Below are positions 2-53,218 of a stretch of 64,000 nucleotides of DNA, in pieces. Positions within the stretch are counted from its first letter, which is position 1. The number at the start of each line of letters is the position of its first letter. The translations under genes and the position numbers were made by a program. This DNA comes from Leptospiraceae bacterium (GTDB lineage: Bacteria; Spirochaetota; Leptospiria; Leptospirales; Leptospiraceae), in the NCBI GenBank assembly GCA_024233835.1, contig JACKPC010000001.1:1285442-1349441 (forward strand), in the 5' to 3' direction. The notes under the pieces are model-generated. The model did not search any database. It saw nothing but the letters and a program-made list of their open reading frames with translations, and had not been told where the DNA came from.

Positions 2-3000
2 CCTACCGTATCGGGTCTTCTGGGAAGTGGCTTACAGCTTTCCGATGGAACGAATACGATAAGCCCCACAGCCAATGGTAGCTGGGCTTTCCCGGCAAGG
101 GCTTCCGGTCTCAGTTATAACGTGACAGTGGCAACACAGCCAACAAATCCCTGGCAGACCTGCTCAGTTACAAACGGTAGCGGGACTTTAACCGTTTCTG
201 ATGTGACGAATGTAACAGTCAGTTGTGTTACCAACACCTATACGATGGGAGGCACAATCAGTGGTTTTGGTTCGGGAACGGACTTAAGTATAACGGATGG
301 AGCCGGTAATACATTGACCCTGCCTGCAGGAAGCAGCACCTTCACTTTTCCCCTGCGGGATAGTGGCAGTAGCTACAGTGTGACTATTGCGACCCAGCCG
401 ACTTCTCCCTGGCAGACCTGTACGGTGACCAATGGTAGCGGTAATTTAACAAATGCGAATATAACGAATGTAAGTATTAGCTGCACTGTGAATACCTATA
501 CCATGTCGGGTTTTATATCGGGACAGGCAAATACTTCGACTTTAATCATCAATAATGGTACAGCCAATGTGACTCTTACCGGTCAGTCGAGTGACTACAA
601 TTATACGGAAAATCTAAACAGTGGCACTTCGTACAACTATACAATAGTGCAACAACCTCCGGGACAGTACTGTGTATTTGTCATGCAGACCCTACTTTCC
701 GGGACTGTGACAAACTCGAACCTTAACAACTTCGGCATCAACTGTGTGAACGGCTATCTGGTGAGTGGTCATATACAACAAAATCCACCGGCTCCGATTA
801 ATATGCACCTGTATCAGGGAAATGTGACTACCCTTGCGGGTAATGGAGTAACCGCAGGTACAGCCGACGGAACGGGTGCTGCGGGACAATTCAATACACC
901 TTCAGGAATCACATTCGATGGAACCTATTTTTATGTTGCTGATACAGGTAATCATAAGATAAAAAGAATTGATTCGAGTGGAAATGTAACTTCTATAGCA
1001 GGAAATGGAATTGCAGGTAATACCGATGGATCCGGGACTTCCATCTCTTCCTTAAATAGTCCAAGAGGGCTTACTACCGATGGAACCTATCTTTATATTT
1101 CAGAATCAAGTGGTAACAGAATCAAAAGGATGCGAATCTCAAGCGGATACGTGGAGACTCTTGCGGGTGATAATTCCGTTGTCTCACCTGCTGCGTCAAC
1201 TCTTGATGGCATAGGAACAGCGGCAAAGTTCAATACGCCTGCGGGAATTGTGGTAGATGGAAATTCTTTGATTATCGTGGAACGAGGTTCCAATGCTATT
1301 CGAGAATTAAATTTGAATACACTTTCTGTAAGCACACTAACAGTCTCAGGAGCAGCATTAAATCAAGCAGAAGGTATCGCACTTGTTGGGAACTACTTGT
1401 ATATTGCTAATTTAAATAGTCATAATATACTAAAAGTTGATAAAACTTCGGGTGTTTCCGTGGTCCTCGCCGGTGGAGCTGCGGGAGAGGTCGGGTATAT
1501 CGATGCTGTAGGTACCACTGCAAGGTTTAATCATCCACATGGGATTGTATCTGATGAAGTTAATCTTTATATAGCCGATTTTGATAATAACCTGATTCGG
1601 CAGCTAGAAATCAGTAGTGGAAGAGTAACAACTCTTGCCGGTACGGGAACAGGTGGAACATCTACCGATGGAATTGGTATCGCAGCTACTTTTAATAGTC
1701 CCAAATTTATGACCAGTGATGGAAAGAATCTGTATGTTGTCATGCATCATGCTATCCGCAAGCTCACCAACAACGGACTTGTGGGTTACTGGCCGCTTAC
1801 TACAAGTGCTGCTGACCATGCCGGAACAAACAACGGAACTTTATATAATTCGCCCGCTTTTACCGCTGCTGATAGATTTGCTGTGGCAAACTCTGCAATC
1901 ACTTTCAATGGCTCAAACCAATTTATTGAAGGTTCTGACTCCGGTTTGCCTTCAGGAGGAAATCCAAGAACAAGTTGTGCCTGGATAAATCCACAGGCAG
2001 TTATTAATGGACTGAGTCTTGTTTTTACCTATGGAACAAATACAGCTTACGGTGGACATGGTATTGCTATAGCAGGAAATGGAACTAAGTTAACCGGAAT
2101 TATGAGTTCCAATTTTGGTGGTTCTGATTTTACAGCACCTTATAACTTAGCAACAAACCAGTGGACACATATTTGTACTACTTATTCCGGCAGTTCAGCA
2201 GGAAATGTTGTGGGAGTTTATGCAAACGGAAAACTCATAGGACAGACTACAACAGGAAACTGGAATACAACTTTATCCGGTCTAATGCGAATAGGTAGCC
2301 AGATCACTAATGCACAGTATTTTAACGGCAATATTGCCGATGTTCGAATCTACAGCCGTGTGCTGAATGAAGGCGAAATCAACGAGCTGGCACAGAATGC
2401 TGCACCCGCACAGGTAGGTTCTACCTACAGCACAGGGGCAACGGGGCTATTGGCAGACTTCCATCTGGATGGTGGTAGTAACAATAGTAGTGGTGCTATT
2501 CCTGATCTGGGTCTTACGGGTTCAACTGGTGGTAATTTCCTCGGTAAGGATGGTGATGCAAATGGATCACGGATGTTTGATATATCCAGTAGTAATACAC
2601 TTAGCGGAACTACGCTCGGCCTTCCTCTTGGTGGAGCCCCTAGAACATTGTGCACATGGATAAATCCTGTATCTTACCCTCCTCCCGGAGGTGGTATTCC
2701 CGGCTGGTATTTTGCTGCCGGTTATGGTGGAACCAGTACAAGCTCTGCTTTTATGGTAGGTGTTTATAATAACTCAGGAATCATCAATCTAACCCTGGAT
2801 TTTGGAAATGATTCAGTTATGGCAGCCTATAATCCGGCACTGAATACCTGGACTCATGTTTGCGGAGTTTACGATGGCAGCACCGCTTATCTTTATGCTA
2901 ACGGTATGTTGTTGAATTCTGCTGCAAAATCCATCAATACAACAACGGGAAGTTTTACTATTGGAGCAAATACAAGTGGCAGCAGTTTTTTCAATGGAAA

Positions 3001-4405
3001 GATAGACGATGTTCGCATCTATAACAATGCACTCAACCAAACGCAAATCCGCCAACTTGCTACACAGGTTCCGACAGGACTTGTGGCCAGATATGATTTC
3101 AATGGAGACGCGAATGATGTAAGTGGATTTGGTGCTAATGGAACTGTATATGGAGCAACACTGACAAGTGACAGGTATGGAAACAGCAATTCAGCTTATA
3201 ATTTTAACCACAATAATCAAAACTACATTGAGGCTCCTCAACTGTTTTTACCTACCGGTTCAAGTTCCAGAACATTATGTGCTTATATTAGACCTCAAAA
3301 TTTACCTCCTACTGCACCGGATCCTCAAAGAGCTGTTTTATATTATGGCACAGCAACTACCAGCGGTGCCAATGGTTTAATCTTTGCATTTGATTATGAA
3401 GTGGCTGTTGCAGGTTATGCAGATGATTTAAGCTTAACCTATCGAACATCTCAAAATACCTGGAATTTCTTTTGTGGTACCTTTGATGGGTCTACAGCAA
3501 GATTGTATTATAATGGAAGGGAATTAATTAATGGAACAAAATCCTGGAATACGGGAACTGGAAATTTCTTTATTGGTAAAAGCTTAAGTACGGTTTATTT
3601 TAATGGAGATATAGACGATGTTCGCATCTATAATCGTGTCTTAACCGAATCGGAAATCCGTGCTTTAAGCGGCTATCATCCGATGCAGGTGACAAGCTGG
3701 AATCCGACGGTTGCCAGTAGTAGTTTACAGTTCCACGTTGCTGCTGATAGTTTTAGTAACCAGGCCGATAATACTACTGTCGGAAACTGGCCGGATATAA
3801 GCGGAAATGGCTTTTTAGGCACCCAATACAACGGGCCAGTTTTTAGAACTGGAGCTAATGGCTTAAATGGTAAACCGGCGATACAATTTAATGGTACTAA
3901 TCAATATTTTGATTTCGGTGCTCAATCAATAGCTTATAATGGTGCAACAGTATTCGCTGTGGCGAAAAATTCCATTTCTGATTATATTGGTAGACCGATA
4001 TTAAGTTATGAACTTGCTTCCGGAGGTTGTGTGACCAGAGTAAATTTGGAAAAAGATTTCACCAATCCGACAAATTATTATTTTGAAGGGCCGGCAAGTA
4101 GTGCGACAATTTCTGCAACTTTAAATGAATCACTTATATTAACCGGTATTCTTGAAGGAACATCCGCGCCAATTAAATTAGCTAAAAACGGAAACGCAGC
4201 TACTTCTGGAGCAAATGTTTCCCTGAGTGGGAATAATTCGTGTAATTTGCGTGCAGGTGGGAGAACAGACACAGCAGATAGATTTCAGGGACTCATTAGC
4301 GAGATCCTGTTATTTAAAGAGGCACTCGGTGTTCCCGACAAAGACATCGTCGAGTGTTATCTCTCTTCTAAATACAATATCCCTATCGGGCATAGCTGTC
4401 CGTAA
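2..4405 (+). CDS. Very large secreted multidomain protein, 5' partial. The reading frame is open back to the window edge. It has N-terminal Ig-like tandem repeats (TxATQPTxPWQTCxVTNGSG), a 6-blade NHL beta-propeller and 4-5 LamG / concanavalin A-like (Laminin_G_3) domains.
   Basis: The frame upstream of the ORF-track Met at 122 translates as ...LSYNVTVATQP, matching the internal repeat SYSVTIATQP, so the protein is truncated at the window edge. NHL motifs appear as FNTPxGIxxDGxYLYxAD..NxIxRxD, six times. LamG signature D(D/A)VRIY(N/S)RxL(T/N)xxEI appears four times, each preceded by YxF/LxGDxxDxSG. Confidence 0.8.
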   Translation, partial: PTVSGLLGSGLQLSDGTNTISPTANGSWAFPARASGLSYNVTVATQPTNPWQTCSVTNGSGTLTVSDVTNVTVSCVTNTYTMGGTISGFGSGTDLSITDGAGNTLTLPAGSSTFTFPLRDSGSSYSVTIATQPTSPWQTCTVTNGSGNLTNANITNVSISCTVNTYTMSGFISGQANTSTLIINNGTANVTLTGQSSDYNYTENLNSGTSYNYTIVQQPPGQYCVFVMQTLLSGTVTNSNLNNFGINCVNGYLVSGHIQQNPPAPINMHLYQGNVTTLAGNGVTAGTADGTGAAGQFNTPSGITFDGTYFYVADTGNHKIKRIDSSGNVTSIAGNGIAGNTDGSGTSISSLNSPRGLTTDGTYLYISESSGNRIKRMRISSGYVETLAGDNSVVSPAASTLDGIGTAAKFNTPAGIVVDGNSLIIVERGSNAIRELNLNTLSVSTLTVSGAALNQAEGIALVGNYLYIANLNSHNILKVDKTSGVSVVLAGGAAGEVGYIDAVGTTARFNHPHGIVSDEVNLYIADFDNNLIRQLEISSGRVTTLAGTGTGGTSTDGIGIAATFNSPKFMTSDGKNLYVVMHHAIRKLTNNGLVGYWPLTTSAADHAGTNNGTLYNSPAFTAADRFAVANSAITFNGSNQFIEGSDSGLPSGGNPRTSCAWINPQAVINGLSLVFTYGTNTAYGGHGIAIAGNGTKLTGIMSSNFGGSDFTAPYNLATNQWTHICTTYSGSSAGNVVGVYANGKLIGQTTTGNWNTTLSGLMRIGSQITNAQYFNGNIADVRIYSRVLNEGEINELAQNAAPAQVGSTYSTGATGLLADFHLDGGSNNSSGAIPDLGLTGSTGGNFLGKDGDANGSRMFDISSSNTLSGTTLGLPLGGAPRTLCTWINPVSYPPPGGGIPGWYFAAGYGGTSTSSAFMVGVYNNSGIINLTLDFGNDSVMAAYNPALNTWTHVCGVYDGSTAYLYANGMLLNSAAKSINTTTGSFTIGANTSGSSFFNGKIDDVRIYNNALNQTQIRQLATQVPTGLVARYDFNGDANDVSGFGANGTVYGATLTSDRYGNSNSAYNFNHNNQNYIEAPQLFLPTGSSSRTLCAYIRPQNLPPTAPDPQRAVLYYGTATTSGANGLIFAFDYEVAVAGYADDLSLTYRTSQNTWNFFCGTFDGSTARLYYNGRELINGTKSWNTGTGNFFIGKSLSTVYFNGDIDDVRIYNRVLTESEIRALSGYHPMQVTSWNPTVASSSLQFHVAADSFSNQADNTTVGNWPDISGNGFLGTQYNGPVFRTGANGLNGKPAIQFNGTNQYFDFGAQSIAYNGATVFAVAKNSISDYIGRPILSYELASGGCVTRVNLEKDFTNPTNYYFEGPASSATISATLNESLILTGILEGTSAPIKLAKNGNAATSGANVSLSGNNSCNLRAGGRTDTADRFQGLISEILLFKEALGVPDKDIVECYLSSKYNIPIGHSCP

Positions 4406-4463: not shown

Positions 4464-7400
4464 TTATAATTCTCCCTGATACAGGGAGTATATTTCTGCC
4501 TCTGTGAGTTCTCTATTATAAATTCTCACATCATCTATACTTCCGATGAAATAATCAGTATTCACCGGGTCACCGGCAATGTAGAAAGTAGTAGCAGCTG
4601 AGTTAAAATCTTTAGTACTGTTAAATATGGTTGATCCATTTACTATAATTTTTCTGTTGGTTCCGGTATATAGAAAGCAGGTGTGATACCATGTTCCGTT
4701 GGTACAGGAATAGGAATTATACCAGGTTCCATTTAAAATATTTCGATTTAAACCTATCTCAGTGGAAGATAAACGAGCTGCAAAGTTTGCATTACTATTA
4801 TCTCCACTAAAAAAGATGGCACGATTGGTTGCACTTAAAGAGGAGGGTTTAATCCAACCGCAAACAGTACGGGCTTCCGCAGCCGAAGGAAAATGTGCAG
4901 CAGATGTGGTGATCCAATTGGTTCCACTAAAACTGTAGGCTCTGTTGGCTGTGCCGTATCTGTCTGTACTTGTTGTAGGAGTATTTACAGGAGTCCCGTT
5001 GTCGCTAAACCCGTCTCCGGCATACTCATCGGTAAGGCTTCCTGAATTAAAGGGGTAGTAAGCGAGCATTCCCTTATCCGGATCGGCAGAAAGGATTTTA
5101 ATTTCATTCGCAGTCAGGGAGCGATCATAAATTCGAAGTTCATCGATACTTCCATTCATGCCGATTCCTCCGAGGTCAGCTCTGAGACCGATTCTTACTA
5201 CCGATGTGTTAACCGTTCCGGGGCTTATCGTTCCATTTCCATCGGCAACACCATTGATGTAGAGTTGATAGGATTCTGAAGTCTTGACTACCGCCACATG
5301 TGTCCAGGTAGAAGCCGGAATGGTAGCTGTGCTATCTACGTTAAGACCGGTTCCGGTATTAATTAAGAACTGTAATATATTCGTTCCCATTATACGAAAT
5401 TCAACATGGTGTCCGGAAGTTGCATCATGCCAGGCAATAATCTCATCATCGGTTCCGGCTGCTGTCCTGTAGATCCAGGCGGAAATTGTCATATTCGTGG
5501 GTAAACTAAAATGGGTACCGAGACTGATGTAGCTCGAAGTACTTCCATTGAATGTAGCTACTGTAGAAGTATTCGAGTATCGATTGGAACCTAAGGAAAC
5601 CCCCGTTGCGGTTCCATGATTGGCATTAACGCTGGCATCATCATAATTCGAATCAAAAGGATAGTAGGCATATAAATTAGAAAAAGTATATTCTCTTTTT
5701 TGAGTATATAAGGTTTTCTTTCCGCTGAGATCCGAGACGACTATATTAAAGTAATAAGCTTTTTCTGCACTGAGTCCTGTAATATTTGCAGAAGTAGTTC
5801 CTGTATACGTATTAAACAGGGTTCCGAGTGTTTCGGTTGAAGAAAGCGAAGTAAGGCAGGGGTAGGTTGCATAGTAAACCTTATAGCTTAAACTTCCCGC
5901 TGCGGTAGCCAGGTCGGAAGCTGCATTCCAGCTTAAGGTAAGAGAAGTGGATGCCACATTGCTTGTAAATATATATCCGTTGGCTACAGTAGGGTTTGTG
6001 AAATCATATTGAGCAGAGGGAGAACTTTGAACTGCGGTTCCTGCGAGATTATATTGATCTTTGGGGGTGACTTCAAAGCGTATGTATTTACCATCGTCTC
6101 CGGCTACAAGGGTATAGGTAGTATTTGTAGCTCCTGATATAGCAGAACAGGTGCCGCTTGTAGTATCGGTACAGCGATACCACTGGTAGGCATGAGTTCC
6201 GGGAAGATGTCCATCCACATCGTTATAAGTAAAGGTTCCGCTGAGCACAGAGCCAATGTTGCTTCCTCCGCTAAAAGCTACCAAACTGGCAGTTGGAGGG
6301 TTATTGGCAGCTACAGTAACGCTTACTGTATAGTTCTGGGTGCTGGCATCAGCGGCTGTTACCACGTAGCTCAGGGGAGTTGAAAAGTTATTGGCTGTAG
6401 TTCCTGAAACCTGGTTGACTCCACCCACCGTAATGCTACTTCCGGAAATAGAAAAATTGGCTACCAGAGCCGTCACATTGGTGTTGTAAGGAACGGTAAT
6501 TGCGATATTCGTTCCGCTGATAATACCTGTAGCTGTGGGGGAACTGAAACCAAACGATATAATTTCTTTGGCCGATAGACTATTGGTATCTGTAATAGCA
6601 AGACTAAAGGGATTTGTGCTTTCTCCTGCCGAATTTTTAGTAAAAACCAGAAAGTGTGTGGCCCCTGAAGGGATGCTTGTATTGGTATTGAAAGTGTAGC
6701 TGAGGTTTGTACCTGTCGCCGCCAAATCAGTAATATGACTTAACTTCGTGCTACTATTCGTTCCCCAGTAGAGGGCGTAGGAAGTGATATTGGATTCATC
6801 AGAAGCTTTTCCTATAGTTAAAATTCCTCCGATTTTTCCAACAGAAACATCCGAGTCTGAAAAGTTTAAAGAAGAAGCAGTTAGAGTAGGTGGACTGATT
6901 AGATCCGAAATAGCCGTACTGACTCCTGTTGACATTTGAACGGTTCCATTTTTAGTAAAAGCAAGCAGGTGAGTTGCCATTGCGGGAATAGCAGTAGAAG
7001 CTAAGGTATAGCTAATATTTTGATTTGTTTTGGAAAGAATTGCGATGGGGTTTCCAATTATTTCTGTAGCGGAACTTCCAAAATAGACCGCATAGGTTGT
7101 GACATCTGTTTCATCAGAAGCTTTTGTAATAGAAAGATTTCCTGCAATATAACCCTTGTTTCCATCTGTATCGGTGAAGTTGAGGGCTTCAGCCGCATGG
7201 GTCGGAGAAGTAAAAACAACAGGTTTTGCATCGCTTCCATCTTCTCCAAAAGCAGTAACGGTCATGACCATAGTTCCTGAGGTAGCCACAGGAGTTGGTG
7301 GAGGTGTATCTGCTGTAATTGTTTCAGGCAGAGAAACCGAAATTTCACCTAACTCTACTCCTGACTCACTGACTATAGTAACCTTAAAACTTCCCGGATT

Positions 7401-8027
7401 AAGTTTCATTTCATATTGACCGTTTTCATCCGTAAGAAATTTGGCCTGTGTGTCATTAATAAGTTTATTGGATCCACTTGTTTCTTCTCCCTTCGTGTTG
7501 TTACCGGAGACTGCCAGAAGGTATTTGGCACCATTCGGGGGACTGGTTCCGAGGTTGAGCATATATATATAAGAGCTTGCCCCGGTTTTCCAGAGTTTTG
7601 TAATACGGGAGAGTTTTTGGTTTTCGGCAGATGCCCAATAAAGGGAGTAAAAATTTATTTCTGTTTCGTCTACAGCTTTTGCAATTTTCACTGGTCCGGC
7701 AATTTTTCCCTTCGTAGGATCAATGTCCACAAAGTCCAATTTACCCGGAGCTTTTTCACTAACAACGGAAGTTCCACCAGTAATTTCTTTTTTTACAGAG
7801 GTTGTCGTGGATAAACTTCCGGCACTCACATTTAATGAGGCATTCTTTACAGTTTCTCCACCAGGAGAAAGTAAATTACCTTTTATTGAATACACGGGTT
7901 TTGGAGAACTTTTTTGTGTATTAAAAGCGGTGATTCGTATTAAGTTATCCTTGCTACTGCCTTCCGGTAGAAATGGATTACAGTGGATTATGAATAAAAA
8001 AATTATATTGAAAACTATAAATTTCAT
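4464..8027 (-). CDS. Large secreted or lipoprotein adhesin-like protein. It has a signal peptide, three tandem Ig-like repeats of about 85 aa, a BIG-like domain, an Ig-like domain, FN3 and two C-terminal LamG domains.
   Basis: The ORF-track start at 8057 is probably 10 codons too long. An AAGGA RBS precedes the ATG at 8027 (MKFIVFNIIFLFIIHC...). Repeat units contain FxDxDxxKGxIAGxxxIxKAxDExxxTxYAxYxG ... THxLxFTKN. LamG signatures are DELRIYDRSLTANEI and DDVRIYNRELTEAEI. Confidence 0.8.
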   Translation of the reverse strand: MKFIVFNIIFLFIIHCNPFLPEGSSKDNLIRITAFNTQKSSPKPVYSIKGNLLSPGGETVKNASLNVSAGSLSTTTSVKKEITGGTSVVSEKAPGKLDFVDIDPTKGKIAGPVKIAKAVDETEINFYSLYWASAENQKLSRITKLWKTGASSYIYMLNLGTSPPNGAKYLLAVSGNNTKGEETSGSNKLINDTQAKFLTDENGQYEMKLNPGSFKVTIVSESGVELGEISVSLPETITADTPPPTPVATSGTMVMTVTAFGEDGSDAKPVVFTSPTHAAEALNFTDTDGNKGYIAGNLSITKASDETDVTTYAVYFGSSATEIIGNPIAILSKTNQNISYTLASTAIPAMATHLLAFTKNGTVQMSTGVSTAISDLISPPTLTASSLNFSDSDVSVGKIGGILTIGKASDESNITSYALYWGTNSSTKLSHITDLAATGTNLSYTFNTNTSIPSGATHFLVFTKNSAGESTNPFSLAITDTNSLSAKEIISFGFSSPTATGIISGTNIAITVPYNTNVTALVANFSISGSSITVGGVNQVSGTTANNFSTPLSYVVTAADASTQNYTVSVTVAANNPPTASLVAFSGGSNIGSVLSGTFTYNDVDGHLPGTHAYQWYRCTDTTSGTCSAISGATNTTYTLVAGDDGKYIRFEVTPKDQYNLAGTAVQSSPSAQYDFTNPTVANGYIFTSNVASTSLTLSWNAASDLATAAGSLSYKVYYATYPCLTSLSSTETLGTLFNTYTGTTSANITGLSAEKAYYFNIVVSDLSGKKTLYTQKREYTFSNLYAYYPFDSNYDDASVNANHGTATGVSLGSNRYSNTSTVATFNGSTSSYISLGTHFSLPTNMTISAWIYRTAAGTDDEIIAWHDATSGHHVEFRIMGTNILQFLINTGTGLNVDSTATIPASTWTHVAVVKTSESYQLYINGVADGNGTISPGTVNTSVVRIGLRADLGGIGMNGSIDELRIYDRSLTANEIKILSADPDKGMLAYYPFNSGSLTDEYAGDGFSDNGTPVNTPTTSTDRYGTANRAYSFSGTNWITTSAAHFPSAAEARTVCGWIKPSSLSATNRAIFFSGDNSNANFAARLSSTEIGLNRNILNGTWYNSYSCTNGTWYHTCFLYTGTNRKIIVNGSTIFNSTKDFNSAATTFYIAGDPVNTDYFIGSIDDVRIYNRELTEAEIYSLYQGEL

Positions 8028-8209
8028 GATTGAGTTTTCCTTTGAATTGTATAGCATATAAGACTATACTTTTTTTTATATTTCTATTTTTTTGACAATT
8101 ATTTTTAAAACTAAAATGCCCTAAATATAAATATGATTCGACACCTTAATGCTCGTAGAAAAATATTAGTTATCAACTGATTTATGAATTCAGGTGTTAA
8201 GGGATAGAA

Positions 8210-40430: not shown

Positions 40431-41309
40431 ATGGAACTAGAGTATCATAAACACGCATTTGAACTTGCAGGCCTAAAGCCTGAATGGAACGAAGAGAACC
40501 TCAAAATTTTGGATGAAAAAGAGTCACTTTTCGATATACAATTTCCACAGGCTCTTCGGGAGTGGTATGCTCTCGAAAACCGTGAAGATTTACTCCTGTC
40601 TCACTCTTTGATAGATTATTCCGAGAGTTTACAGGAATTTGGCAATCATTCCAGCTGGGATGAACTACCCGACCCGGAAGATGTTCCGGAGGCTGTGTAT
40701 AACCGCCTTTTACGTTATAACGAACTGTTTGCGAAAAGGAAGGTTTTGAGTATTTTCAGTGAACAGCAGGGCATGATAGGCTGGTTTTTGAAGCTAAACC
40801 ATAAAGAAGACCCGGAAGTTCTCGTACAGCTCGAGGACAATCGACATGAACTCTATTCCTACAAGAATACTTTTTCAGAGTTGATTTATACTTCTGTCTG
40901 GGATGGAATCATTGTTTACGGGCTGGGTAATTTCAGTGGTTATTATGTAGAAGCTGTAGGAAAGAAACTTTCCAGAAAAGCTTTGAAATATATAGAAGAT
41001 AAACTCGGTTTACTTCCTTCTTCTCAGAATCCAGGTACAAAGCGTATGATACTCAGGGCCGGGCAAATCGGCGAAGGTCTTACTTCCTGGCAGGATAGGG
41101 ACTCTGCAAGGTACTTTTTTCATGCTTCGGAACTAAAGCCTTTGCAGAGATTAATGAATCATTTTTTTCGACTTAATTTGCTTACAGGGGATTTTACATG
41201 TAATTATGTAGCCTTTGAAGGGGAAGAAGACTACAAAAGAAAAGAAGAAGAAATGCAGGATTTTCTTAAGAAGAGTTTTTCTCTTTTACAAAAAGAATCT
41301 GTCTATTAA
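40431..41309 (+). CDS. Hypothetical cytoplasmic protein, no recognisable domain
   Basis: Long ORF with normal codon usage. No motif recognised. Confidence 0.35.
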   Translation: MELEYHKHAFELAGLKPEWNEENLKILDEKESLFDIQFPQALREWYALENREDLLLSHSLIDYSESLQEFGNHSSWDELPDPEDVPEAVYNRLLRYNELFAKRKVLSIFSEQQGMIGWFLKLNHKEDPEVLVQLEDNRHELYSYKNTFSELIYTSVWDGIIVYGLGNFSGYYVEAVGKKLSRKALKYIEDKLGLLPSSQNPGTKRMILRAGQIGEGLTSWQDRDSARYFFHASELKPLQRLMNHFFRLNLLTGDFTCNYVAFEGEEDYKRKEEEMQDFLKKSFSLLQKESVY

Positions 41310-48777: not shown

Positions 48778-49197
48778 TTAGCTGGCGGATTCTTCTTTTT
48801 TTGTAGTGGCTTTTTTAATACTTTCAGAAACTTCCTGAATTTTTTCTTTCACTGCTTCTATTTTACCTTCTGGCATTTTTGTTTTGATTTCTTCTGTGAT
48901 TTTATTGAAGTTTTCTACGATTTTGGCTCTGGTTTCTTCATAGTTTTTGCCGGCAACACTTGTAAAGTCTTTAATGTCAGCAATGATTTTATCCAGTGTA
49001 TCTCTTAATTTAACAGCATTTTCAGAACTATCCTGCTCACCTTTAGCTTTCATATCACCATAGATTTTCTCTAATTCAGCTTTGGCGTTTAAAAGGCCAT
49101 CTTTTCCTGATTGAAAGATACCGATTCCTGCATTTAGTAAGTCCATAATTTGCTTTTCCATTTTGATTACCTCTAATTTTATTGAGCTTACGACCAC
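48778..49197 (-). CDS. Small helical, phasin-like hypothetical protein. The start is probably the internal Met MEKQIMDLL.
   Basis: Amphipathic K/E-rich helices with no TM segment. Confidence 0.3.
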
Positions 49198-49375: not shown

Positions 49376-50173
49376 ATGAGTATTGAGATTGAAAAACGCT
49401 TTGAACACATGCTCGCTTTTTTACCTTCCGTAGCCAGCTTTGTTCTTGAGATACAGTCCAAAGTGGAGTTTAGTATTTCCAAGAAAGGAGATATTGATAT
49501 TGTTACCGAAGCCGATCTCGGAGCTGAAAAAAGGATCATTGAGGAAATTCAAAAATATTTTCCGGAAGATAAAATTTTAGGGGAAGAAACTGGTTTAATA
49601 GGAGGAGAAGGGGGCTACAAGTGGATTATTGATCCGGTAGATGGCACAACTAACTTTGCCCACAGACTTCCCCTTTTTGCCATAGCCTGCGGACTCGAAG
49701 ACACCCGGACAGAAGAAGTAGTTCTGGGAATTGTCCTGACTCCGGCCCTGGGGGATGTATATTATGCAAAAAAAGGTTCGGGTGCTTTTAAAAACGGTAA
49801 ATTGATTACAGTTTCCGGAGAAGAAAAAATGATAAATTCCTTACTTTGCACCGGTTTTCCTTACAATTTAATGCAGGATATTGAAGGACTTGGAAATAAG
49901 TTTAAACATTTTCTTTTAAAATCGAGAGGAGTCAGAAGAACCGGTTCTGCCTGCCTCGACCTCTGCTGGCTTGCTGAAGGCAGGTTTGATGGTTTCTGGG
50001 AACAAAACCTGAAACCCTGGGATACAGCCGCCGCAAGCCTAATTATCAGGGAAGCAGGTGGTAAACTCAGTGATTTTTTTGGAGATAAATTTAACCATTA
50101 TGGAAACACCATTCTTGCCTCTAATGGAAAAATACACGAGGATATGCTAAGCGAGTTAGGAAAACTTCTTTAA
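49376..50173 (+). CDS. suhB: Inositol monophosphatase family (SuhB-like)
   Basis: WIIDPVDGTTNF and WDTAAASLIIREAGG. Confidence 0.85.
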   Translation: MSIEIEKRFEHMLAFLPSVASFVLEIQSKVEFSISKKGDIDIVTEADLGAEKRIIEEIQKYFPEDKILGEETGLIGGEGGYKWIIDPVDGTTNFAHRLPLFAIACGLEDTRTEEVVLGIVLTPALGDVYYAKKGSGAFKNGKLITVSGEEKMINSLLCTGFPYNLMQDIEGLGNKFKHFLLKSRGVRRTGSACLDLCWLAEGRFDGFWEQNLKPWDTAAASLIIREAGGKLSDFFGDKFNHYGNTILASNGKIHEDMLSELGKLL

Positions 50174-50673
50174 TTCTCCCTCTTTTCTGCGGGCAGGAAA
50201 TCTTCGGGTTTTATCTGAAATTCAGCTTCTATGACGACTTTTTTTTCTTCATTTAATATACTGATTTTCCATTTCCCATCCCGCAGGTATTTTTTCTCAA
50301 CAAAATCCCGGTAATTCGTACTCAGATATCGATAATCAAATATTCTTCGAAATAGGGGTTTAAACCGAAATTCATGAATTCTCTCATCTCCCGGCTTCTC
50401 CAGGTTCTCCCATTTAAAGAATACAATCTCAAGTTTATCGGAAGGGTGGATGCGGTGGTAGCGGGCATAAATCCGAATTTGTTTGTAATCATTCGAAACT
50501 TCTGTCCAGGCCTGTAAAATGTCTCCATTAGAAGCAGTAAAACTCTTTTCTCCTAATTGCTTTATCCAGCGCAGGGGAAGTTTCTGCTCGGTTAATTTTC
50601 CTTTTTCAATATGAATTCCCCCTAAAAACAAAGGAAACAGGCAAAAAATCAGGAATTTATTTCTATAATTCAT
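50170..50673 (-). CDS. Hypothetical exported protein
   Basis: Signal-peptide-like N-terminus MNYRNKFLIFCLFPLFLGG. No recognised domain. Confidence 0.35.
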   Translation of the reverse strand: MNYRNKFLIFCLFPLFLGGIHIEKGKLTEQKLPLRWIKQLGEKSFTASNGDILQAWTEVSNDYKQIRIYARYHRIHPSDKLEIVFFKWENLEKPGDERIHEFRFKPLFRRIFDYRYLSTNYRDFVEKKYLRDGKWKISILNEEKKVVIEAEFQIKPEDFLPAEKREN

Positions 50674-50804: not shown

Positions 50805-51569
50805 ATGGAGCTTTTTTGCAGGGAGATAGGAGATGAAAAGAGTCCCGGGCTGATAGTTCTTCACGGACTATTTGGTTCGTCTCGAAACTGGATTAGTAAT
50901 GCAAAAGCTCTCTCCAATCATTTCCGGGTCTATTCTCCGGATCTTCGGAATCATGGGGAATCTCCACACGATATAAGTCATCGCCTTGAAGATATGGTTT
51001 TGGACCTCAAAGAATTTTTTTCCCAAAAAAAGCTTCTCAGGGCAAGTCTTATAGGTCATTCTATGGGGGGGCTCGTTTCTATCCTTTTTGCCAATCAATT
51101 TCCCACCCTGATCGATAAACTCGTTATAGTAGATATAGCTCCCAAAAGCTATAGTTTGGATTATAGTTCTGAATTTACTGCGCTTTCTATGGACGTGAGT
51201 CAATACCATTCCCGCGAGGCTCTTGATAAAGATATGTCAAAAGTTTTAAGTTCTGAGTTTATTCGGAAATTTTTGCAGATGAATCTCGAAAAAGTAAGCA
51301 GGGGGTATCGGTGGAAAATAAATGTGGATGCTATTCGAAATACTCCGGATCGTTTTATTTTTCCAGAGCTTTCCGAACCCTATTTTTCCGGAAGAAGTCT
51401 GTTTGTATTGGGGGAAAAGAGCTTTTTTGTAGAAGAAAACGATAAACAGAACATTAAAAGATATTTCCCGAATGTGGAAATTCAGACCATACCTGGAGCC
51501 GAGCATTATCTTCATTATAGTCATAGCTCGGAATTTCTGCAAATAGTGGAGGATTTTCTTTTAAAATGA
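50805..51569 (+). CDS. Alpha/beta hydrolase
   Basis: LIVLHGLFGSS and LIGHSMGG (GxSxG). Confidence 0.75.
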   Translation: MELFCREIGDEKSPGLIVLHGLFGSSRNWISNAKALSNHFRVYSPDLRNHGESPHDISHRLEDMVLDLKEFFSQKKLLRASLIGHSMGGLVSILFANQFPTLIDKLVIVDIAPKSYSLDYSSEFTALSMDVSQYHSREALDKDMSKVLSSEFIRKFLQMNLEKVSRGYRWKINVDAIRNTPDRFIFPELSEPYFSGRSLFVLGEKSFFVEENDKQNIKRYFPNVEIQTIPGAEHYLHYSHSSEFLQIVEDFLLK

Positions 51570-52870
51570 AGATCCGTCTTCCAGAAACCTGTCTTGTTTT
51601 TCTCATAGGTGCTTCCGGTTCCGGTAAATCCAGCCTGGCTAAAAAGCTGTTTGATCCCTATGAGATCCTTTCTTCCGATCATTTCCGGGCTGTTATTTCA
51701 AATGATGAGAGCGATCAGGAAGCGAGCACCGATGCTTTTGAAGTTCTTCACAGGTTGGTCGAAATGCGTCTGAAGCGGGGGCTTTTTACGGTGGTTGATG
51801 CCACCAATGTAAAACGGGAAGCCAGAAGACCTTTACTGAAAATAAGTCGTCAGTATCATTTTTTAACGGCTGCGATTATTTTAGATTTCAATGAAGACAA
51901 ATGTATTCAGCGAAACCAGGAAAGAACTTATAGAATTGTTGACTCTGAAGTTATACGCAAGCAAATTGATGATCTGCAATTTTCTCTCAGAGTTCTAAAA
52001 AAAGAAGGTTTTTCGTTTATCTATCGATTTACTTCTCCTGAAGAACTCTCCGAATTGAGCCTCGAAAAGTTTTCCTTGAAAAATAATCGCCGAAAAGAGA
52101 AAGGCCCCTTTGACATTATAGGAGATATACACGGTTGCTTCGATGAATTATATGAACTTTTACACAGGCTGGGTTATCAGATACGATTGAATATTCATGG
52201 TAACGAAGAAAGTTTTTCTATACGCCATAGCGAAAATCGAATTCCCGTTTTTTTAGGAGATCTGGTAAATAAAGGACCGAAAAACATTCGGGTTCTACGC
52301 TTTGTAATGGATCTGGTAAATGAAAATATGGCTTACTGTGTTCTGGGAAATCATGAGAAGAAGCTTCTTTATTATCTGCGCGGGAAAGATAGCCGATTGC
52401 GGGGTGGCTTACAGGATACAATAGAACAACTTTCAGGCTATAGTGCAGAGTTTCGAAATTCGGTGGTTGAGTTTATTCGCCGTCTGAGTGATCACTATGT
52501 ATTTGACCATGGAAATTTGGTGGTAGCCCACGCGGGCTTGCGAGAAGAAATGCAGGGAAGAACTTCTATGGGTGTACGAAACTTTTGTATGTACGGAGAA
52601 AATTCGGATGATGTGGATGAATACGGAATGCCCGTTCGATACTCCTGGGTTCAAAACTACCGGGGAAAAGCGAGGGTAGTGTTTGGACATACACCTATTC
52701 TCGAACCTGAATGGTATAACAGAACCATAGATATAGATACCGGTTGTGTTTACGGTGGAAGACTTACGGCCCTACGTTATCCGGAATTAGAAATGGTATC
52801 GGTACAGGCGAGAAAAATCTACTATCAGAGTAGAAGTCCTCTACCACAGCACCTGTCATTACAGAGTTAA
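51566..52870 (+). CDS. Polynucleotide kinase-phosphatase-like fusion: an N-terminal P-loop kinase (AAA_33/PNK-like) plus a C-terminal calcineurin-like metallophosphoesterase (PrpE/lambda-phosphatase type)
   Basis: Walker A GASGSGKSS, then FTVVDATN. The phosphoesterase has GDIHGC, GDLVNKGP, GNHE and GHT. It overlaps the upstream hydrolase gene by 4 nt. Confidence 0.6.
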   Translation: MKIRLPETCLVFLIGASGSGKSSLAKKLFDPYEILSSDHFRAVISNDESDQEASTDAFEVLHRLVEMRLKRGLFTVVDATNVKREARRPLLKISRQYHFLTAAIILDFNEDKCIQRNQERTYRIVDSEVIRKQIDDLQFSLRVLKKEGFSFIYRFTSPEELSELSLEKFSLKNNRRKEKGPFDIIGDIHGCFDELYELLHRLGYQIRLNIHGNEESFSIRHSENRIPVFLGDLVNKGPKNIRVLRFVMDLVNENMAYCVLGNHEKKLLYYLRGKDSRLRGGLQDTIEQLSGYSAEFRNSVVEFIRRLSDHYVFDHGNLVVAHAGLREEMQGRTSMGVRNFCMYGENSDDVDEYGMPVRYSWVQNYRGKARVVFGHTPILEPEWYNRTIDIDTGCVYGGRLTALRYPELEMVSVQARKIYYQSRSPLPQHLSLQS

Positions 52871-52896
52871 AATTCAAAAATATTTTTTAATCGCAG

Positions 52897-52921
52897 GCGA
52901 GTCGTTATGGGCTCGACTGGC
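52897..52921. terminator. Possible hairpin in the gap between the convergent pnkp-like and hisE genes
   Basis: GCGAGTCG-ttatgggct-CGACTgGC, an imperfect stem with 7 of 8 pairs. Confidence 0.3.
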
Positions 52922-52936
52922 GACCGTAAAGAAAAT

Positions 52937-53218
52937 TTATTTCGAATGTCTTTTCTTGAGTTCGTTTATGATTTCCTGAAAGGGAAGTTCTTTTTCTACC
53001 ATTAAAACCTGCATATGAAACAGCAGATCTGCCAGTTCATGTGTAAGCTCTTTTCTGTCCGTATTTTTAGCGGCAATAATTACTTCTCCCGCTTCTTCTC
53101 CAATTTTCTTTAAAATTCTATCAACCCCTGCCTTAAAAAGCCCTGAGGTATAAGAATTTTCCGGTAACTCTTCTTTCCTTTTCTGTAGAAGTGCTTCTAA
53201 TTCTGATAAAAAATCCAT
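52937..53218 (-). CDS. hisE: Phosphoribosyl-ATP pyrophosphohydrolase (MazG-like HisE)
   Basis: LEELxxxxxxRK...EEAGEVIIA...[13 protein letters not shown]. Confidence 0.8.

Follow-up and report, generated by a model that had tools for sequence, protein, structure and literature searches.

The window, i.e. the 64-kb stretch of Leptospiraceae DNA that was analyzed at its full length, contains a two-gene unit on the forward strand in which a gene for an α/β-fold hydrolase overlaps the gene for a protein of 434 amino acids (aa), here called Pnkp-N, that combines a polynucleotide kinase with a metallophosphoesterase and lacks a ligase module. The features of the locus, in coordinates of the window, are:

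50805..51569, + strand: α/β-fold hydrolase gene, 254 aa, upstream partner of the two-gene unit (open reading frame; Abhydrolase_1, E 9e-25)
51548..51552, + strand: GGAGG, Shine-Dalgarno-like sequence read within the hydrolase gene, 13 nt 5' of the Pnkp-N start
51566..51569, + strand: ATGA, 4-nt overlap of the hydrolase stop codon (TGA) with the Pnkp-N start codon (ATG)
51566..52870, + strand: Pnkp-N gene, 434 aa, polynucleotide kinase and metallophosphoesterase without the ligase module (TIGR04075 positions 1-426 of 851; PDB 4gp6 and 4j6o)
51566..52075, + strand: 5'-OH polynucleotide kinase domain, residues 1-170 (by the CthPnkp kinase, 4gp6)
51608..51634, + strand: P-loop GASGSGKSS, residues 15-23
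52076..52840, + strand: binuclear metallophosphoesterase domain (2',3'-phosphoesterase), residues 171-425 (by the CthPnkp phosphatase, 4j6o)
52121..52135, + strand: GDIHG metal-binding motif, residues 186-190
52256..52276, + strand: GDLVNKG, residues 231-237, with Asn-Lys for the Asp-Arg of the family (alignment of homologs)
52346..52357, + strand: GNHE motif, residues 261-264, with the Asn metal ligand and the phosphate-binding His
52592..52648, + strand: "Cth-loop" segment YGENSDDVDEYGMPVRYSW, residues 343-361, with the tip changed from ETTGE to ENSDD (alignment)
52841..52870, + strand: C-terminal tail, residues 426-434 (...PLPQHLSLQS), and stop codon, ending where the ligase module of relatives starts
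52871..52936, no strand: 66-nt spacer ahead of hisE, with neither room for a ligase module nor a trace of one
52937..53218, - strand: hisE, the neighboring gene, convergent with the Pnkp-N gene

The hydrolase scores 88.2 bits against the Abhydrolase_1 model (cutoff 25.8), and the nucleophile-elbow G-x-S-x-G motif is present in its translation as GHSMGG. Its top NCBIfam match, the esterase PRK10673, reaches 121.6 bits against a cutoff of 399, such that no equivalog is assigned; its orthologs across Leptospiraceae are 43-56% identical. The first-pass annotation had reported an α/β hydrolase overlapping a kinase-phosphatase gene by ATGA, and this is what the two reading frames and their overlap display, except that the end coordinate it gave, 52921, falls 51 nt beyond the Pnkp-N stop codon, inside the 66-nt spacer. 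The GGAGG sequence together with the ATGA overlap indicates translational coupling of the Pnkp-N gene to the hydrolase, an esterase gene that is inherited vertically in Leptospiraceae. In three other Leptospiraceae genomes the hydrolase orthologs have unrelated neighbors and never adjoin a Pnkp-like gene. Given this lack of a conserved pairing we rejected a functional link between the two genes, as there is no detectable functional linkage behind their overlap; the pairing is lineage-specific and probably reflects the place where the gene landed rather than a common pathway. The GC content, GC3 and codon usage of the Pnkp-N gene are host-like, being indistinguishable from those of neighboring genes, and a recent horizontal transfer was rejected on these grounds. 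The stop codon of the gene is real, as six contigs, each assembled independently, match the window base for base and yield an identical protein of 434 aa. Being identical at every base, these contigs give no signal for dN/dS or polymorphism; they represent a single clonal lineage, the only one in which this protein was seen. No structured RNA or tRNA was found in or near the locus, a scan for promoter and terminator consensus sequences gave fewer sites than in shuffled sequence, and a PADLOC search for defense systems returned only a sub-threshold P-loop match.

The 434-aa protein had been described as a P-loop kinase joined to a calcineurin-type phosphoesterase and likened to the healing half of bacterial Pnkp. 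Both domains are recovered by HMMs (AAA_33, E 3e-28; Metallophos, PF00149, E 1e-15), and the top family model is TIGR04075 (bacter_Pnkp), matched with 602.7 bits and E 1.2e-180 over model positions 1-426 of 851; this score stays under the curated equivalog/trusted cutoff of 750 bits, as the match extends over just half of the model. Residues 1-167 align with residues 2-168 of the kinase of Clostridium thermocellum Pnkp (CthPnkp; 4gp6, E 8e-46), and residues 171-422, including the Cth-loop segment, with residues 3-255 of its phosphatase (4j6o, E 2e-84), which makes the CthPnkp structures the best matches by sequence as well as by predicted fold. Structure prediction, which the annotation had proposed as a check, gave a kinase domain that superimposes on that of CthPnkp with a TM of 0.96-0.97 and an rmsd of 0.9 Å, and a phosphatase domain with a TM of 0.89. 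The AF2 model has a mean pLDDT of 82.9, with low confidence in the region 324-357, which includes part of the Cth-loop, and a pLDDT below 50 at residues 424-434. In the kinase, residues S17, K21, S22, D38, R41, D78, T80, R116, R120 and R123 are all present, and the P-loop corresponds to the GSSGSGKST of CthPnkp (PMC3902929). In the phosphatase, the metal ligands D187, H189, D232, N262, H322 and H375 are present along with H263 and D391, so that every one of the CthPnkp counterparts (Asp187, His189, Asp233, Asn263, His323, His376 and Asp392) has its equivalent. Altogether 18 of the 19 catalytic residues equal the family consensus, the exception being R236K. The alignments and the predicted fold establish a P-loop polynucleotide 5'-kinase that is intact in every catalytic and NTP-binding residue known from CthPnkp, followed by a binuclear metallophosphoesterase that is likewise intact in all its metal ligands. 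Of the motifs previously listed for the phosphoesterase, GDxHG (as GDIHG), GNHE and GH (as FGHTP, residues 373-377) are there as described, but GDxxxRG is not, the site reading GDLVNKG with Lys in place of Arg. A better HMM assignment of the kinase to small-molecule kinases had been named as the observation that would overturn the Pnkp assignment. The closest kinase matches after Pnkp are AAA_33, KTI12 and PSTK (the latter two at E 1e-7 to 1e-8), and no gluconate or shikimate kinase models are found among the HMM matches of the kinase domain; with no such model close, the Pnkp assignment is not refuted. Such proteins are presently labeled just "AAA family ATPase".

The GDLVNKG site aligns with GDLVDRG of CthPnkp, in which Arg237 binds phosphate; its Asp236 and Arg237 are replaced by N235 and K236 in the window protein. 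The Asp-Arg pair is found in 180 of 185 homologs scored, and in all 32 sequences of a separate alignment (A1), while Asn-Lys is found only in the window protein. In CthPnkp the R237K mutant keeps the 2',3'-cyclic phosphodiesterase activity and loses the phosphomonoesterase activity (PMC2190708, PMC3675462): its kcat for 2',3'-cAMP is up 3-fold and its Km up 6-fold, whereas D236N lowers the Km (PMC2190708), and mutations of Arg237, including R237K, abolish the Mn-dependent monoesterase, with no ribonucleotide phosphomonoesterase regained by conservative substitutions (PMC3675462). Given that the natural changes are the equivalents of R237K and D236N, the window enzyme is predicted to keep the cyclic phosphodiesterase and to have a weak or inactive 2'/3'-phosphomonoesterase. 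It is thus possibly diesterase-biased by analogy to CthPnkp, an enzyme 53% identical to it, and the co-occurring N235 and other changes could compensate for K236. With the window protein being more divergent than any other family member, the alteration of a near-invariant active-site Arg is just as compatible with a lost phosphatase function. The Cth-loop, as described for CthPnkp (PMC3675462), has also changed, with T346N, T347S, G348D and E349D all at columns in which 95% or more of the sequences agree.

At its other end the protein stops, as placed by alignment, exactly where the phosphatase module would give way to the ligase module; its tail lines up with the conserved "LSAQQxxDDLLD..GKRII" at the start of the relatives' ligase module. 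A CthPnkp fragment of comparable extent, CthPnkp-(1-425), is on its own an active kinase and 2',3'-phosphoesterase (PMC3675462). Ligase and Hen1 HMMs built from 70 full-length homologs and their neighbors were run on a six-frame translation of the whole window, thus covering 64 kb out of a genome that exceeds 2 Mb. Within this stretch the Pnkp ligase/adenylyltransferase module (PF16542) had no match by tblastn or HMM, Hen1 (PF12623 plus a methyltransferase domain) had none at E <= 10, and no other RNA ligase families are present among the genes. The gene upstream of Pnkp-N is the α/β hydrolase and not a co-oriented hen1. The earlier remark that the protein has neither a ligase domain nor an adjacent Hen1 thus holds across the window.

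Pnkp homologs number about 4,700, and a comparison with 80 related genome loci places this architecture in perspective. The gene is full-length in 70 of them and hen1 is directly upstream in 76. The length of a homolog alone was rejected as evidence of truncation since eight of the ten short genes result from frameshifts or internal deletions or lie at contig ends, with DNA coding for the ligase still present. Checks of genomic context uncovered four further Pnkp-N orphans lacking both ligase and Hen1, one decaying cassette (L095) with Hen1 and ligase in fragments around an intact Pnkp-N, and two split systems (L089 and L096) in which Hen1, Pnkp-N and ligase are encoded by three adjacent genes. 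This set of loci suggests that orphaning is a recurring evolutionary path. The orphans keep their catalytic residues and depart from the family at 8-23 of 143 conserved columns, whereas full-length proteins depart at 1.6 on average and at 6 at most (Mann-Whitney p 8e-5). Residues 74, 150, 309, 345 and 349 are recurrent sites of change in orphans. With 23 departures the window protein has diverged further than any other family member; the Pnkp-N proteins of the split systems have only 2-3. Its terminal branch in a neighbor-joining tree is 0.44, versus a full-length mean of 0.13 and maximum of 0.26, and due to this long branch its origin is not resolvable by that tree; no spirochetes occur among the closest 120 proteins or the 80 genome loci. 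The fraction of its residues matching the family consensus falls with column conservation (0.84, 0.60, 0.42 and 0.21). No natural orphan Pnkp-N was found in the openly accessible literature searched; there the cassette is described as conserved and natural ligase-less forms are not mentioned.

Sequence and structural model together make it likely that the 434-aa protein is an orphan Pnkp-N, which has lost its ligase and Hen1 and is retained as a stand-alone nucleic-acid end-healing enzyme; of the two readings offered in the first-pass annotation this one now becomes the principal one. Its ancestor would be a trifunctional Pnkp from the Hen1-Pnkp cassette for bacterial RNA repair, with both Hen1 and the C-terminal ligase module lost since. 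The kinase is predicted to phosphorylate 5'-OH ends using an NTP donor, and the phosphoesterase to yield ends with a terminal monophosphate in place of a 2',3'-diol. Lacking a ligase of its own, the enzyme would hand its products to a ligase from another locus or, just as plausibly, to 5'-monophosphate-dependent RNases for decay. The enzyme's role is probably to trim the ends of broken RNA or DNA, not to seal them itself. Retention under selection is supported by the open reading frame remaining intact despite the branch of 0.44, the consensus gradient, the host-like codons and the coupling signals.

Of the competing explanations, the one that survives best, though we regard it as quite unlikely, is that Pnkp-N participates in canonical repair with a Pnkp-type ligase and Hen1 encoded elsewhere in the genome, of which 64 kb were examined. 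Dispersal has parallels in the split systems; the unrelated Pnkp1-Rnl-Hen1 system, too, has its hen1 at a great distance from the remaining genes (PMC4411300). However, the genes of the split systems are adjacent, and their small number of departures contrasts with the 23 of the window protein, which resembles orphans and not partnered proteins; moreover, hen1 is directly upstream in nearly all related loci (76/80), and the 64 kb hold neither ligase nor Hen1.

We consider it more unlikely still that the gene is a non-functional relic of a decayed Hen1-Pnkp cassette, without a selected function and on its way to becoming a pseudogene. Such a fate would fit the loss of the partners, the longest branch in the family, the substitutions at otherwise invariant residues (the phosphate-binding Arg among them), the restriction to a single lineage and the decay intermediate known from L095. 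Yet at an amino-acid divergence of about 49% a frame of 434 codons is still open in a genome of 39% GC, catalytic residues are retained at 18 of 19 positions, the substitutions track the conservation gradient of the family, and codon usage is host-like and translation apparently coupled. At least four independent lineages retain an intact Pnkp-N after loss of the partners, which argues that the healing half is useful alone.

Lastly, we hold highly improbable the Ap4A-hydrolase-kinase fusion raised as an alternative in the first-pass annotation, in which the phosphatase half would be an Ap4A hydrolase or a PrpE-like protein phosphatase with dinucleoside polyphosphates or phosphoproteins, and not polynucleotide ends, as substrates: PrpE and ApaH models do match the phosphatase domain, Ap4A hydrolase structures are among the PDB matches, and partner loss with a changed active-site residue leaves room for a substrate shift, but the matches stay below cutoff (NF010148 for PrpE, 218.8 against 340 bits; NF001204, 92.1 against 176; TIGR00668, 59.4 against 222.85) and far below the collinear Pnkp match of 602.7 bits, the fold is closer to the Pnkp phosphatase (TM 0.89) than to the Ap4A hydrolases (ApaH; 0.59-0.74), and the accompanying kinase matches polynucleotide kinase at 0.9 Å with its acceptor-site residues D38, R41 and T80 intact.

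Returning to the orphan end-healing enzyme as the preferred reading, its wider meaning derives from the fact that Pnkp has so far been studied almost only within the Hen1-dependent heal-methylate-seal machine. The presence of the healing half alone in at least four independent lineages, along with a decay intermediate, suggests that a 5'-kinase/2',3'-phosphoesterase is useful outside repair-with-immunization, possibly, for instance, where RNAs cleaved by toxins and metal-independent ribonucleases are turned over. As a natural experiment, the window protein also reproduces the laboratory separation-of-function mutation R237K, and the positions that drifted after the loss of ligase and Hen1, most clearly the tip of the Cth-loop, are candidate sites of inter-module contact or hand-off in the unsolved full Pnkp-Hen1 complex. 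A bolder proposal, which we hold to be possible though on balance doubtful, is that orphan Pnkp-Ns constitute a recurrent, undescribed class of stand-alone end-processing enzymes arising from repeated decay of Hen1-Pnkp cassettes and serving a job other than Hen1-dependent repair, with the Leptospiraceae member having gone furthest. If so, the latter would be solely a 5'-kinase and cyclic phosphodiesterase, producing ends with a 5'-phosphate and a 2'- or 3'-monophosphate; it would either make cleaved RNAs eligible for decay that depends on a 5'-monophosphate, or supply a ligation pathway of the yeast or plant type in which a 2'-phosphate is left behind, and the recurrent Cth-loop changes in orphans would mark the surface from which methyltransferase and ligase normally receive the healed 3' end.

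Among known systems, the bis(5'-nucleosyl)-tetraphosphatases PrpE and ApaH and the lambda phosphatase share with the window protein the binuclear metallophosphoesterase superfamily and its metal-binding motifs, but are single-domain proteins without the kinase, Cth-loop or β-hairpin. Pnkp1 of the Pnkp1-Rnl-Hen1 system and phage T4 Pnkp are, like the window protein, ligase-less kinase-phosphatase polypeptides for RNA repair; their phosphatase is however of the DxDxT/HAD type, a "completely different" superfamily from Metallophos (PMC4411300), no chains of either were recovered in a PDB sequence search with the 434-aa protein at E <= 0.001, and the Pnkp1 gene adjoins Rnl. Pnkp1 was rejected as a precedent for a ligase-less Pnkp on account of this T4-like HAD-superfamily phosphatase. 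A functional analog is HD-Pnk of Runella slithyformis and Deinococcus radiodurans, which is also a bifunctional 2',3'-phosphoesterase and 5'-OH kinase without a ligase domain (PMC6097658). Its phosphoesterase is an N-terminal HD domain rather than a calcineurin-type one, with the domain order reversed, whereas domain HMMs detect no HD domain in the 434-aa protein and its kinase is N-terminal; further, Runella HD-Pnk is clustered with a ligase, Tpt1 and a methyltransferase, neighbors that the window gene lacks. Bacterial Pnkp itself (CthPnkp, TIGR04075) is homologous to and collinear with the window protein throughout the kinase and the metallophosphoesterase, with about 47-54% identity, and shares its fold and catalytic residues; the window protein differs in lacking the C-terminal ligase/adenylyltransferase module (PF16542) and an adjacent hen1, in having Asn-Lys for Asp-Arg at the phosphate site and an altered Cth-loop tip, and in its much faster sequence evolution. 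The nearest parallels are engineered: the window protein ends within about 9 residues of the autonomously active kinase-phosphatase fragment CthPnkp-(1-425) (PMC3675462) and has equivalents of both R237K and D236N (Keppetipola & Shuman; PMC2190708, PMC3675462). Those constructs were made in the laboratory from a 53%-identical enzyme, whereas in the window protein the truncation and the substitutions are natural and occur together, along with about 20 other changes at conserved positions.

The 434-aa kinase-phosphatase lies directly downstream of a 254-aa alpha/beta hydrolase gene. In the database records of this uncultured Leptospiraceae bacterium (MCB1158005/6, MCP5499464/5) the pair goes under the names 'alpha/beta fold hydrolase' and 'AAA family ATPase'. 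The kinase-phosphatase gene is termed here Pnkp-N, after the kinase-metallophosphoesterase half of bacterial Pnkp. The relevant genes of the window are:

122-4405, + strand: very large gene (1427 aa), multiple Laminin_G_3 (concanavalin-like lectin) domains
4464-8057, - strand: very large gene (1197 aa), convergent with 122-4405, multiple Laminin_G_3 domains
40431-41309, + strand: 292-aa ORF, no Pfam match at E <= 1e-5
48778-49197, - strand: 139-aa ORF, no Pfam match at E <= 1e-5
50170-50673, - strand: 167-aa ORF divergent from the hydrolase, no Pfam match at E <= 1e-5
50805..51569, + strand: alpha/beta hydrolase gene, 254-aa ORF
51566..52870, + strand: Pnkp-N gene, 434-aa ORF, same direction as the hydrolase
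3' of the Pnkp-N gene after a 66-nt spacer: hisE, convergent

As the first-pass annotation had noted, and as the ORF coordinates and sequence bear out, the hydrolase stop and the Pnkp-N start share an ATGA; a GGAGG is found 13 nt 5' of the Pnkp-N start codon. An identical 434-aa product is encoded by six contigs that were assembled independently, come from several sequencing runs and match the window in DNA, hence the Pnkp-N stop codon is real. Over stretches of up to 21 kb the window is matched with 100% identity by contigs (L001-L006) of at least five different sequencing runs and of one GenBank MAG, and this identity between runs suggests that one and the same clonal population was sampled several times. 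The 167-aa ORF 5' of the hydrolase has an N-terminal hydrophobic segment resembling that of a lipoprotein or secreted protein. Both Laminin_G_3 proteins are probably surface or secreted proteins, one of them also having NHL repeats and a pentaxin-like match.

The hydrolase itself is an ordinary alpha/beta-fold esterase-like protein (Abhydrolase_1, GHSMGG nucleophile elbow) that reaches no equivalog; orthologues 43-56% identical to it are spread across Leptospiraceae, and L. interrogans is among the species that have one. In three related genomes no Pnkp-like gene was found 3' of these orthologues and the downstream neighbors are unrelated, so the pairing is lineage-specific. We read the ATGA overlap as translational coupling gained where the Pnkp-N gene settled, rather than as evidence of a common pathway.

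The proposal that the 434-aa protein is the healing half of bacterial Pnkp was upheld by family models, solved structures and a predicted structure. Pfam places AAA_33 at residues 10-142 and Metallophos at 181-379, and the NCBIfam bacterial Pnkp equivalog TIGR04075 matches with E 1.2e-180 and 602.7 bits; the score falls under the 750-bit cutoff because model positions 1-426 of 851 alone match. A search of solved structures aligned residues 1-167 with the kinase of the reference enzyme from Clostridium thermocellum, CthPnkp (4gp6, E 8e-46), and residues 171-422 with its phosphatase (4j6o, E 2e-84). The AlphaFold model (mean pLDDT 82.9) superposes on the CthPnkp structures with TM 0.96-0.97 (rmsd 0.9 A) for the kinase and 0.89 for the phosphatase. 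A small-molecule kinase, which had been named as the assignment that would tell against Pnkp, did not emerge from the family-model search.

The kinase residues whose roles were assigned by structures and mutagenesis from the Shuman laboratory (PMC3902929) are all in place (Ser17, Lys21, Ser22, Asp38, Arg41, Asp78, Thr80, Arg116, Arg120 and Arg123), as are the metal ligands, phosphate-binding histidine and Asp392 equivalent of the phosphatase (D187, H189, D232, N262, H263, H322, H375 and D391). The GDxxxRG motif initially reported was misread: the actual sequence is GDLVNKG. Asp-Arg occupies this site in 180 of the 185 homologues scored, and Asn-Lys (N235, K236, equivalent to Asp236 and Arg237 of CthPnkp) is found in the window protein only. 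In CthPnkp, R237K raises kcat on 2',3'-cAMP 3-fold and Km 6-fold, while D236N lowers Km about 3-fold (PMC2190708); conservative substitutions did not restore ribonucleotide 2'/3'-phosphomonoesterase activity (PMC3675462). By analogy, the window enzyme is predicted to retain ring opening of 2',3'-cyclic phosphates while removing the resulting monophosphate poorly. With no ligase, Hen1 or Arg237, and a score under the cutoff, the protein falls outside the strict Pnkp equivalog; it is clearly a derivative of the Pnkp family and should work like the healing half.

The reported absence of a ligase domain and an adjacent Hen1 stood up across the 64-kb window. The C-terminus ('...SPLPQHLSLQS') aligns with 'LSAQQxxDDLLD..GKRII', the conserved start of the ligase module of its relatives. 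Tblastn with 40-odd queries detected no ligase-domain DNA in the window (best E 0.057, scattered matches), and its six-frame translation had no match to ligase and Hen1 HMMs made from 70 full-length loci and their neighbors. Nor did Pfam recover a substitute RtcB, Rnl-type ligase, LigT, Tpt1 or methyltransferase among the other genes of the 64 kb.

The closest relatives in a collection of 5.8 billion proteins are only 52-54% identical, and most contain the PF16542 ligase domain. The best 80 loci from a species-representative genome collection span many phyla and include no spirochaetes; 70 of them encode 846-901-aa proteins, and at 76 hen1 (Hen1_L + methyltransferase) is directly upstream in the same orientation. 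Eight of the ten shorter genes reflect frameshifts, internal deletions or contig ends, with ligase-coding DNA still there, and the only true loss of both ligase and Hen1 among the ten is the 433-aa gene of a gammaproteobacterial MAG (L061). Genomic context, with classes confirmed by HMM, was examined for six short database hits; these included three further orphans, i.e. Pnkp-N without ligase module and Hen1 (P0064, P0029, P0118), two split systems with Hen1, Pnkp-N and ligase as three adjacent genes (P0010, P0107), and one decaying cassette (L095). Pairwise identities and a neighbor-joining tree point to four or more orphan lineages of independent origin, with L061 and P0029 being sisters (77% identical). 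The informative loci, the two split systems and the decaying cassette among them, are:

L089:4566-8700: split Pnkp system; Hen1, Pnkp-N of 458 aa and ligase module of 423 aa as separate adjacent genes
L096:3604-7569: split Pnkp system; Hen1, Pnkp-N of 441 aa and ligase module of 412 aa as separate adjacent genes
L095:4555-6838 (GCA_041745715.1, JBGTIK010000065.1): decaying cassette; Hen1 fragments 4555-5008, ligase fragments 6330-6838
L027:8001-10292: 763-aa Pnkp whose ligase module lacks an internal stretch (HMM positions about 169-235) through deletion
L043:1824-3254: stop after 476 aa, near a contig end
L024:11248-11529: 94-aa fragment with a match (E 3e-33) to the Pnkp ligase HMM over its final 60 positions

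L095 retains an intact 442-aa Pnkp-N (5001-6329) between the Hen1 and ligase fragments, and is a plausible intermediate toward the orphan state of the window. L027 and L043, both from Candidatus Thiomargarita nelsonii, have no Hen1 neighbor. The L024 fragment follows a frameshifted Pnkp gene at a distance of about 3 kb and seems to be a part of the cassette that was duplicated or has been rearranged. At L061:4720-8424 and L090:2452-12084 the sister orphan genes each lie beside TPR-CHAT proteins, and L090 also has a caspase (Peptidase_C14)-FGE-sulfatase protein and an AAA_15/AAA_21 ATPase. These two orphans may thus belong to loci of a conflict or defence type; no significant match came from PADLOC.

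Departures from consensus were counted at the 143 columns whose conservation across the 70 full-length proteins is 95% or more:

Full-length proteins: mean 1.6, maximum 6
Split-system Pnkp-N: 2-3
Decaying-cassette protein: 9
Orphans: 8-11
Window protein: 23

Orphans thus differ from full-length proteins (Mann-Whitney p 8e-5), and divergence is greatest in the window protein, which has 51% mean identity to full-length proteins, as against 67 +/- 2.4% among the latter, and a terminal branch of 0.44 in the neighbor-joining tree (full-length proteins: mean 0.13, maximum 0.26). A dispersed canonical system, with ligase and Hen1 partners elsewhere in the genome, is disfavored by these counts, since the partnered split Pnkp-N proteins lack orphan-like drift. 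A functionless relic is likewise disfavored by the intact frame and the conservation pattern: agreement with the family consensus drops smoothly with column conservation (0.84, 0.60, 0.42, 0.21), codon usage and GC3 are like those of neighboring genes, and catalytic residues are kept in all orphans, bar R236K in the window and two conservative P-loop changes in P0118. On these sequence features, the divergence is something other than random decay. Fusion of a kinase to an Ap4A hydrolase, the other initial suggestion, or to a protein phosphatase is disfavored by family and fold scores (PrpE 218.8 bits against a cutoff of 340; TM only 0.59-0.74 to Ap4A hydrolases and lambda phosphatase).

The positions drifting repeatedly in orphans are 74, 150, 309 and, in the 'Cth-loop', the phosphatase loop described for CthPnkp (PMC3675462; window residues 343-361), 345/349. 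The acidic tip of this loop (residues 345-349, 52598-52612) is near-invariant in full-length Pnkp and changed in the window protein, L061, P0064, P0029 and P0118 (E345 to Q or D; E349 to D, K or A); in the window protein ETTGE has become ENSDD, in a region (324-357) modeled with low confidence. In a published speculation, the loop delivers healed 3' ends to the ligase or methyltransferase. Relaxed constraint after loss of ligase and Hen1 matches this hand-off idea, but in so small a sample is only suggestive.

On its own, CthPnkp-(1-425) is active as a kinase and as a 2',3'-phosphoesterase (PMC3675462). As a stand-alone healing enzyme, the Leptospiraceae protein would accordingly be expected to phosphorylate 5'-OH ends and hydrolyse 2',3'-cyclic phosphate ends of broken RNA, with DNA 3'-phosphate and 5'-OH ends as possible further substrates. 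Its chemistry may be biased to phosphodiesterase-only because of K236 and N235, and the products would be handed to a ligase acting in trans or enter 5'-monophosphate-dependent decay.

In the freely searchable literature we came across no account of Pnkp-N proteins that naturally lack a ligase. The window protein would represent a natural separation-of-function allele, and it argues for a role of the healing module beyond the Hen1 system. Pnkp1 and T4 Pnkp differ from it in having a HAD-type phosphatase (PMC4411300). In function, the nearest counterpart of the window protein is HD-Pnk, likewise bifunctional in end healing and without a ligase domain (PMC6097658), which differs in its HD phosphoesterase and opposite domain order.
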